From contig CANPVP010000001.1 of NCBI GenBank assembly GCA_947581825.1, positions 7,606 through 39,605 of the forward strand: 32,000 nt of DNA, in the 5' to 3' direction. The notes under the pieces were generated by a model. It did not search any database, was not told the DNA's origin, and saw only the letters and a program-made list of their open reading frames with translations. Origin of the DNA: an uncultured Clostridia bacterium (GTDB taxonomy: Bacteria; Bacillota; Clostridia; TANB77; CAG-508). Positions 28,580-28,616 of this stretch are shown piece after piece; position 1 is the first letter of the stretch; each line of letters starts with the position of its first letter. The position numbers and the translations under genes are program-made.

Positions 28580-28616
28580 TGAAACTTTTTTATAAACAAT
28601 ATTACTCTATATAGTA
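28580..28616 (+). promoter_or_regulatory. ECF-type promoter upstream of the Spo0A-like gene
   Basis: TGAAACTTTTTT-N14-TCTATATAGTA has the same blocks and spacing as 18276-18312. The upstream ATTTTATAAAAAA tract is also shared. Confidence 0.55.

Follow-up and report, generated by a model that had tools for sequence, protein, structure and literature searches.

A common ECF-type promoter motif precedes an ECF sigma factor gene and a Spo0A-like regulator gene on a putative conjugative element of an uncultured Clostridia bacterium

Two copies of one bipartite motif of the ECF promoter type were found in the window, the whole 32-kb stretch of DNA that was analysed; one copy precedes the gene of an ECF sigma factor, and the other precedes the gene of an orphan response regulator that carries a Spo0A-type DNA-binding domain. 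The reading preferred here, to which a probability of about 0.8 is assigned, is that both copies are promoters read by the sigma factor encoded on the same element. According to it, the sigma factor (18357-18899) is presumably held inactive by a co-transcribed membrane protein (18883-19995) and, once freed, would direct RNA polymerase to two promoters composed of TGAAAC and a T-tract, a distance of 20 nt from AAC to TC, and TCT(T/A)ATA. The first promoter would head the operon of the sigma factor itself, establishing positive autoregulation, and the second, 10.3 kb downstream, would head the gene of the orphan REC+Spo0A_C regulator, probably together with ABC-transporter genes. That the motif is transcribed by the sigma factor of the window, and that the membrane protein plays an anti-sigma role, we infer from sequence comparison.

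A bipartite motif at two intergenic sites

When both strands of the 32-kb window were searched with the pattern TGAAACTTTTTT-N14-TCT, allowing up to one mismatch, only two matches were obtained, at 18276 and 28580. On the + strand, positions 18276-18312 read TGAAACTTTTTTTGTGTGTAAATATATCTTATAAGTA and positions 28580-28616 read TGAAACTTTTTTATAAACAATATTACTCTATATAGTA, each copy having TGAAAC at offset 0 and TCT at offset 26, exactly as described in the earlier note on this DNA, which had proposed one motif with identical block positions. For these 15 specified bases, again with up to one mismatch, 0.17 matches were expected against the 2 found, and two or more matches appeared in none of 100 shuffles. 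A 37-nt pattern that includes AGTA returned the same two perfect matches and one further match with three mismatches, located within an ORF. In the pairwise alignment only the two blocks are alike, and the copies differ in their 14-nt spacer and in the flanks; such block-limited identity is more readily explained by a protein that recognises a bipartite site than by duplication of a segment.

Both copies lie between genes, on the coding strand. The first starts 81 nt and ends 45 nt before the ATG of the sigma gene at 18357, and the second starts 126 nt and ends 90 nt before the ATG of the regulator gene at 28706, confirming the distances of about 45 and 90 nt that had been claimed. The putative promoter of the sigma/anti-sigma operon (18276..18312, +), of ECF type and presumably autoregulatory, consists of the -35 element TGAAAC at 18276-18281, followed by the T-tract, and of the -10 element aTCTTATAAGT at 18301-18311, with a transcription start predicted at about 18313-18316. 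The second ECF-type promoter (28580..28616, +), 5' of the Spo0A-like regulator gene, consists of TGAAAC at 28580-28585 and cTCTATATAGT at 28605-28615, and its predicted start at about 28617-28620 would leave a leader of ~88 nt. No Rfam family was matched at either site, and no sigma-70-type promoter better than chance was found near them.

It could be argued that the two 37-nt matches arose by chance, or are a duplication scar in AT-rich DNA, and have no promoter function. The window is indeed 75% A+T, GAAACTT alone occurs 9 times against 8.4 expected, and the flanking 13-mer ATTTTATAAAAAA is not significant; yet the full motif was found twice against 0.17 expected, on the right strand and at the right distance from two start codons, with identity in the -35 and -10 blocks only, and it is conserved across dozens of diverged loci. 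This explanation is extremely improbable, and the comparative sequence data presented below already contradict it.

The 13-mer ATTTTATAAAAAA had been described as a shared sequence preceding both copies. It does precede both, at 18252-18264, where 11 nt separate it from TGAAAC, and at 28567-28579, where it abuts TGAAAC; as a positioned part of the motif it was rejected on account of its different offsets and its lack of enrichment in the window (9 found against 5.3 expected with one mismatch), and it is not conserved before the orthologous promoters. It would represent generic phased A-tracts. Phased A-tracts of the form GTAAAAAAA or ATAAAAAA, with a period of ~10-11 nt, were observed directly 5' of the -35 element, both in the window (28540-28579 and 18250-18275) and 5' of the -35 element of the regulator gene in five other loci (L036, L058, L059, L069 and L074). 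They could be UP-element-like or serve as autoregulation sites of the regulator.

The sigma factor, its membrane partner and the leader of their operon

The gene at 18357..18899 (+) encodes a protein of 180 aa with the domain content of an ECF (group 4) sigma factor, sigma-2 and sigma-4 only (Pfam Sigma70_r2 at residues 23-85 and Sigma70_r4_2 at residues 125-165), which passes the general model TIGR02937 with 72 bits against a cut-off of 42.9. It reaches the cut-off of no named equivalog. The best named subfamily is TIGR02954 (Sig70_famx3), with 109.4 bits, below its cut-off of 188.5. SigW provides the closest solved structure (5wuq, E = 1.2e-12), and the scores with the SigW equivalogs NF007223 and TIGR02948 are 69.7 and 60 bits, below the respective cut-offs of 209 and 243; with 60-70 bits against 209-243, assignment as a SigW orthologue was rejected.

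The adjacent gene (18883..19995, +), which overlaps the stop codon of the sigma gene by 17 nt, encodes a putative anti-sigma factor of 370 aa. Judged from its sequence, it spans the membrane with one transmembrane helix, which separates a short cytoplasmic segment at the N-terminus from a large extracytoplasmic part, and in most of the 79 loci described below the sigma gene is likewise followed by a gene for such a membrane protein. No anti-sigma domain model matched the protein, and a sub-threshold match to PepSY was the only one obtained with Pfam.

The leader of the sigma gene contains an imperfect palindrome, ATATC-AAG-TTTGCAAA-TAA-GATAT (18312..18340, +), placed right after the -10 element. 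It is found at the same place in the loci of the sigma orthologues (L001-L079), with a sequence that depends on the clade (GTTTGCAAAC, ATATGTACATAT, GGTATATACC or TCTAGCTAGA), and it is absent from the regulator promoters. A function as a 5' RNA hairpin was rejected, the folding energies ranging from 0 to -4.6 kcal/mol with no significant z-score. Since RNA folding is weak, a DNA operator seems more likely, and the palindrome may be one.

The Spo0A-like regulator and the permease genes

The gene behind the second promoter (28706..29431, +) encodes an orphan response regulator composed of a receiver domain (Response_reg, 58.9 bits) and a Spo0A_C domain (36.2 bits), both above the Pfam cut-offs. 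As read from the sequence, D9, D10, D56, S81 and K105 of the receiver domain are all present. The regulator was rejected as a Spo0A orthologue, with 78.5 bits in TIGR02875 against a cut-off of 200; the match spans only positions 4-203 of the 262-position model.

After a gap of 88 nt follow two permease genes (29520..31952, +) encoding proteins of 406 and 401 aa, the first with a Pfam FtsX domain (39.7 bits) and the second with no matching model. The gene products that had been proposed, namely an ECF sigma factor and a REC+Spo0A_C regulator followed by FtsX permeases, were thus borne out. In longer copies of the element (L080-L082), which extend past the end of the window, a gene for an ABC_tran ATPase (228 aa) directly follows the permease genes, and an FtsX permease and an ABC ATPase in one operon correspond to a transporter of the FtsX/MacB type; the ATPase gene is followed in turn by genes for a coupling protein, SpoVG and a SpaA adhesin.

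The earlier note had suggested that the sigma factor drives both its own operon and the whole Spo0A-like/ABC operon. For the Spo0A-like gene this claim finds comparative support, but for the complete operon it is less well shown, because the ABC genes may have a promoter of their own in the 88-nt gap 3' of the regulator gene. The permeases of the window have no detectable homologues in the loci gathered with the sigma factor, and the ABC transporter is thus not part of the conserved core.

Conservation of the motif upstream of sigma and regulator genes

Species-representative genomes were scanned with an alignment of sigma homologues, which yielded 79 loci; the relatives come from uncultured gut Clostridia. 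The motif was found 5' of about 48 sigma orthologues with protein identities of 43-95%, in the form of (T)GAAAC or a one-base variant, a T-tract and nTCT(T/A)ATA, the motif beginning 59-82 nt ahead of the start codon. AAC and TC are 20 nt apart in 39 of these sites and 19 nt apart in the other 9. In two loci (L026 and L028) a sortase gene stands directly ahead of the sigma gene, and there the motif is placed 5' of the sortase gene. A motif conserved in this way 5' of sigma genes is the expected signature of an autoregulated ECF promoter, and the proposal of a GAAAC-type ECF promoter subject to autoregulation gains support from its recurrence before the 48 orthologous genes.

A two-block weight matrix was built from 42 unique sites upstream of sigma genes, the window and its near-identical relative L076 being left out. 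Over both strands of the window its top matches are the site at 18276, with 34.4 bits, and the site at 28580, with 19.8 bits, followed by a third at 9.8 bits. The best match per shuffled 32-kb window averaged 9.9 bits (sd 3.2, maximum 20.0 in 200 shuffles), so that the regulator site taken alone about equals the shuffle maximum and draws its support mainly from its conservation at orthologous genes.

The matrix was then applied to the window and the 79 loci (80 loci, 2.62 Mb counting both strands) with a threshold of at least 13 bits, and 90 matches were obtained. The gene after the match is a sigma gene in 58 cases, a homologue of the window regulator detectable by BLAST in 14, a more distant REC+Spo0A_C protein in 1, a sortase-sigma operon in 2, a secreted-protein gene in 1 and a miscellaneous gene in the remaining 14. 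Among the 15 regulator-type proteins Pfam recognised Spo0A_C in 13 and Response_reg in 12. A match within 200 nt upstream was present for 11 of 29 genes of Spo0A_C-type regulators (38%) versus 11 of 1423 other ORFs (0.8%; Fisher p = 1.5e-14), figures in which variant promoters are undercounted because the matrix is biased toward TGAAAC. The scan for further copies that had been suggested thus gave only the two copies in the window and an enrichment before sigma and Spo0A_C-type genes in the related loci.

Covariation of the -35 element with the recognition helix

The -35 hexamer is the same at the sigma promoter and at the regulator promoter in 10 of 17 non-redundant loci, across five variants; in permutations the mean was 2.6 and P about 1e-5, shared ancestry being ignored. 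TGAAAC is present at both promoters in the window and in L005, L019, L032 and L076, TGCAAC in L036, L038, L042, L055 and L069, TGTAAC in L051, TGTAAT in L059 and TGAAAG in L062. The covariation is broken in L037, L045, L074, L010 and L058. Parallel changes of the -35 element across clades are what would be predicted if the sigma factor coevolves with both its promoters.

The -35 sequence is also related to residue 156 of the adjacent sigma factor, located in the sigma-4 recognition helix (ENTVK-T-KR). The residue is threonine in 38 of 39 sigma factors whose -35 element has A at the third base, mostly TGAAAC, and serine in all 6 whose third base is C, mostly TGCAAC (Fisher p = 9e-7, shared ancestry being ignored), the sole exception being L053. 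The Ser156 sigma factor of L042, with 62% identity to that of the window, lies among TGAAAC-type relatives, and consequently the switch between threonine and serine arose at least twice. Residue 156 aligns with T in the GTVKT sequence of SigW and with S in the GTVRS sequence of sigma-E, which is S172 in its recognition helix GTVRSR. Residues 155-156 are encoded at positions 18819-18824 of the window, and residue 155 is threonine in the TGAAAG loci. The two residues are a candidate natural specificity code.

The regulator promoter might instead be read mainly by another sigma factor, either host-encoded or a paralogous ECF sigma with TGAAAC specificity, which would wire the regulator to host signalling and not to the element's own sigma. 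The family has expanded, several genomes containing two or three paralogous sigma factors with near-identical -35 and -10 elements (L057, L064 and L072), and with the same TGAAAC element cross-talk at the regulator site is possible. In addition, TGAAAC is the -35 element of sigma-W of B. subtilis, and the recognition helix of SigW is the same. Against such an arrangement, the -35 element covaries within loci between both promoters and with residue 156 of the sigma factor encoded next to them, and the regulator and sigma genes travel together on at least two unrelated types of mobile element. Control mainly by another sigma is accordingly regarded as improbable, and reading by the cognate sigma is retained as the preferred explanation.

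Element context and the core module

The host genome has ~25% G+C. Two serine recombinase genes are located on the left, beside a short Peptidase_S11 ORF (146-151 aa) and host genes, and from the gene content and these recombinases the window holds the left part of a conjugative element that integrates by serine recombinases. At this left end (11377-15083) the Peptidase_S11 ORF (151 aa in the window) abuts the first recombinase gene (11895-13466, -) and is a possible mark of the integration site. The second recombinase gene consists of two ORFs, one of 64 aa with the resolvase domain (14889-15083) and one of 359 aa (13757-14836), and it is split in the same way in L083-L085. A regulatory cluster adjoins the recombinases (15592-17656) and encodes a protein of 139 aa (15592-16011, -) that matches an Mga HTH domain below threshold, with 17.8 bits where 21.1 are required, a 140-aa protein with sigma region 4 only (16460-16882, -) and an Xre-type HTH protein (17309-17656, +); it resembles the Orf7/Orf8-type control region of Tn916-like elements. 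The 140-aa protein was considered as a reader of the motif and found unlikely, since just 2 of the 79 loci contain homologues. The host part of the window, outside the element, contains two tRNA genes (1131-1219, +, and 6596-6669, -). Megablast of positions 11800-32000 against phage and plasmid collections matched nothing, and a scan of viral contigs with the sigma factor detected no relatives.

Loci anchored on the regulator were gathered by exact-protein look-ups, and close orthologues (62-71% identity) were found to share contigs with sigma orthologues. The commonest orthologue, listed on 58 contigs, belongs to a small integrative mobilisable element (L087-L090) with genes for a tyrosine integrase, an excisionase-type HTH protein, the sigma factor, the anti-sigma factor, a secreted protein, encoded on the opposite strand, the regulator and a Mob_Pre relaxase; its matrix scores are 36.2 bits before the sigma gene and 18.2 bits before the regulator gene. 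The same four module genes are present in L091, where the regulator promoter keeps TGAAAC and has a degenerate -10 element.

In a variant of the element an insertion of 13 kb separates the PcfJ gene from the regulator operon, placed ~60 nt 5' of the regulator -35 element and right after a G+C-rich hairpin terminator (L081/L083, which are one 61.9-kb contig, and L092). The regulator promoter is unchanged in this variant, which has four ECF-type promoters: in addition to those of the sigma gene and of the original regulator, one precedes a gene for a small membrane protein and one a second regulator-ABC cassette. A decayed copy from a rabbit-gut genome (L076, 6121-10590) has a sigma gene with an internal deletion, lacks the block 20060-28417 and has a regulator that has lost the receiver domain and is cut to the C-terminal domain; in its regulator promoter the -35 and -10 elements are conserved and the spacer has diverged. 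The 8-kb replication block that separates the two gene pairs in the window is specific to its own element. From the loci anchored on the regulator and from these variants, the core module is made up of the sigma factor, the anti-sigma factor, the secreted protein and the regulator.

The same variants bear on a further explanation, in which most transcription of the regulator and ABC genes would come from read-through out of the upstream replication/PcfJ genes or would start at a housekeeping-sigma promoter, leaving the site at 28580 vestigial or weak. No terminator was found near the 18276 and 28580 sites, including the stretch between the PcfJ and regulator genes in the window, so read-through could contribute; the regulator site lies 14.6 bits below the sigma site, and the degenerate -10 element of L091 points in the same direction. 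However, the promoter is kept base for base where its upstream context has been replaced and a hairpin terminator placed before it, it is duplicated before other cassettes, and it is conserved before regulator orthologues with identities of 27-71%, and the sigma-70-type matches do not exceed chance. Read-through or a housekeeping promoter as the main source of expression is thus judged very unlikely, in favour of an active promoter read by the cognate sigma.

Phased boxes and a putative regulatory cascade

The secreted-protein gene of the module is represented in the window by sec178 (20193..20729, -), a conserved neighbour of the sigma operon whose product is modelled as a beta-sandwich, with pLDDT above 90 for residues 50-170. 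Its structural matches are weak and generic (jelly rolls of the carbohydrate-binding-module kind and generic beta-sandwiches, with TM-scores up to 0.48), and for that reason no function is claimed. A secreted protein of 170-178 aa is the partner of the module in nine other loci (L005, L006, L010, L011, L013, L024, L027, L087 and L091). In other loci the leader of the secreted-protein gene was seen to contain a hairpin with compensatory stems (GTGCAAA/TTTGCAC, GTGTAAA/TTTACAC and TACAGA/TCTGTA) followed by AGGAAnCTAGAGG.

Two arrays of phased boxes are present in the window. The first, CCAC-T6-CCAC-TTTTATTTA (20791..20813, -), is located upstream of sec178, with two further CCCC boxes 5' of it, to about 20835; the second, CCTC-T6-CCTC-TTTTATTTA (29444..29466, +), lies between the regulator gene and the first permease gene. 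The general form CCWC-T6-CCWC-TTTTATTTA thus occurs twice against 0.01 expected. In both arrays the last box is placed 27 nt before a -10 element of the form TATAMT, which is TATACT for sec178 and TATAAT for the permease gene. Similar arrays, with a core that differs by clade, precede the sec178 orthologues and are often found just upstream of the regulator -35 element, and on the small mobilisable element no protein other than the regulator is an obvious candidate for binding them.

The phased CCWC-T6 boxes may be the binding array of the Spo0A_C regulator, and their positions suggest a cascade in which the sigma factor acts on the regulator, and the regulator in turn on the genes for the secreted protein and the ABC transporter. 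It is proposed tentatively that the regulator binds the boxes, which read GTGGAAAAAA on the other strand, and activates promoters of the sigma-A type without a -35 element; such promoters would precede the secreted-protein gene and the ABC permease genes. An equally speculative extension, somewhat less likely to be right than wrong, is that the sigma factor, anti-sigma factor, secreted protein and Spo0A_C regulator form a self-contained signalling cassette of three tiers, which mobile elements of several kinds would carry in gut Clostridia. In such a cassette an envelope signal would free the sigma factor, the regulator would then be made and bind boxes of the GTGGAAAAAA type, and the output would be the switching on of the secreted jelly-roll protein and, on the element of the window, also of the ABC transporter. 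The sigma family would have diversified into insulated pairs of sigma factor and promoter, namely TGAAAC with Thr156, TGCAAC with Ser156 and TGAAAG with Thr155.

Comparison with known systems

An autoregulated ECF sigma with a small regulon is a standard mechanism, and the sigma factor of the window is a new, uncharacterised member of that kind. The autoregulated promoters of the sigma-W/RsiW system of B. subtilis have the consensus TGAAAC-N16-CGTA. The system of the window shares with it the TGAAAC -35 element, the recognition-helix core TVKT, and an autoregulated operon with a membrane-protein gene directly 3' of the sigma gene; it differs in the -10 element, TCT(T/A)ATA instead of CGTA, which is further from the -35 element, the 19-20 nt from AAC to TC being longer than in sigma-W promoters. 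The membrane protein also differs in having no recognisable zinc-binding anti-sigma domain, and the set of targets is a different one. The promoters of sigma-E (RpoE) of E. coli have the form GGAACTT-N16-TCTAA/TCAAA with a gap of about 18 from AAC to TC. Here the likeness concerns the AAC-TT of the -35 element, the TC core of the -10 element (TCTAA/TCTTA) and positive autoregulation, the gap of 19-20 nt being 1-2 nt longer; in contrast to sigma-E, the system belongs to a Gram-positive organism, and neither its anti-sigma factor nor its regulon is related to those of sigma-E.

The association of ECF sigma factors with two-component systems has been described for the groups ECF15, ECF32, ECF39, ECF234 and ECF246, in which the two-component system controls the sigma factor (Casas-Pastor et al. 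2021, PMC7826278); the main text of that work does not mention Spo0A or PepSY. The present module resembles those groups in that the genes for an ECF sigma and a response regulator are consistently found near each other, but here the sigma factor apparently drives the regulator gene and the module has no histidine kinase. Earlier reports have also described PF08769 as enriched on mobile elements of Firmicutes and Spo0A homologues as present on gut phages, the Spo0A_C genes of mobile elements and phages having been read as a means of manipulating sporulation and the phage homologues described as truncated, with the effector domain only (PMC10294663; bioRxiv 10.1101/214213). The regulator of the window has the DNA-binding domain of Spo0A; unlike the phage homologues it keeps a complete receiver domain, and unlike Spo0A it has no sporulation genes as conserved partners but those for an ECF sigma, a secreted protein and, in some cases, an ABC transporter. 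Among the closest systems, likened by description only, is the Tn6105-type element of C. difficile R20291 (Brouwer et al. 2011, PMC3158075), for which the publication does not state whether the sigma factor is of the ECF type. Searches of the literature brought up no ECF sigma described as controlling a Spo0A_C regulator.

Biological implications

The regulons of sigma factors on clostridial mobile elements are essentially unmapped, and according to the transcription-start atlas of C. difficile no consensus is known for its ECF or mobile-element sigma factors. The motif described here supplies a testable promoter consensus for an ECF clade widespread in uncultured lineages, with at least two targets per element, together with a natural specificity switch in which the change from A to C in the -35 element goes with T156S. 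The Spo0A_C genes of mobile elements that belong to the family of the window regulator have an ECF sigma as their conserved partner and apparently are among its targets, and this predicted wiring of sigma factor and regulator recurs in dozens of related gut bacteria. Moreover, if the three-tier cassette is true, the 'Spo0A homologues' of mobile elements would be largely outputs of ECF envelope signalling and not hijackers of sporulation.
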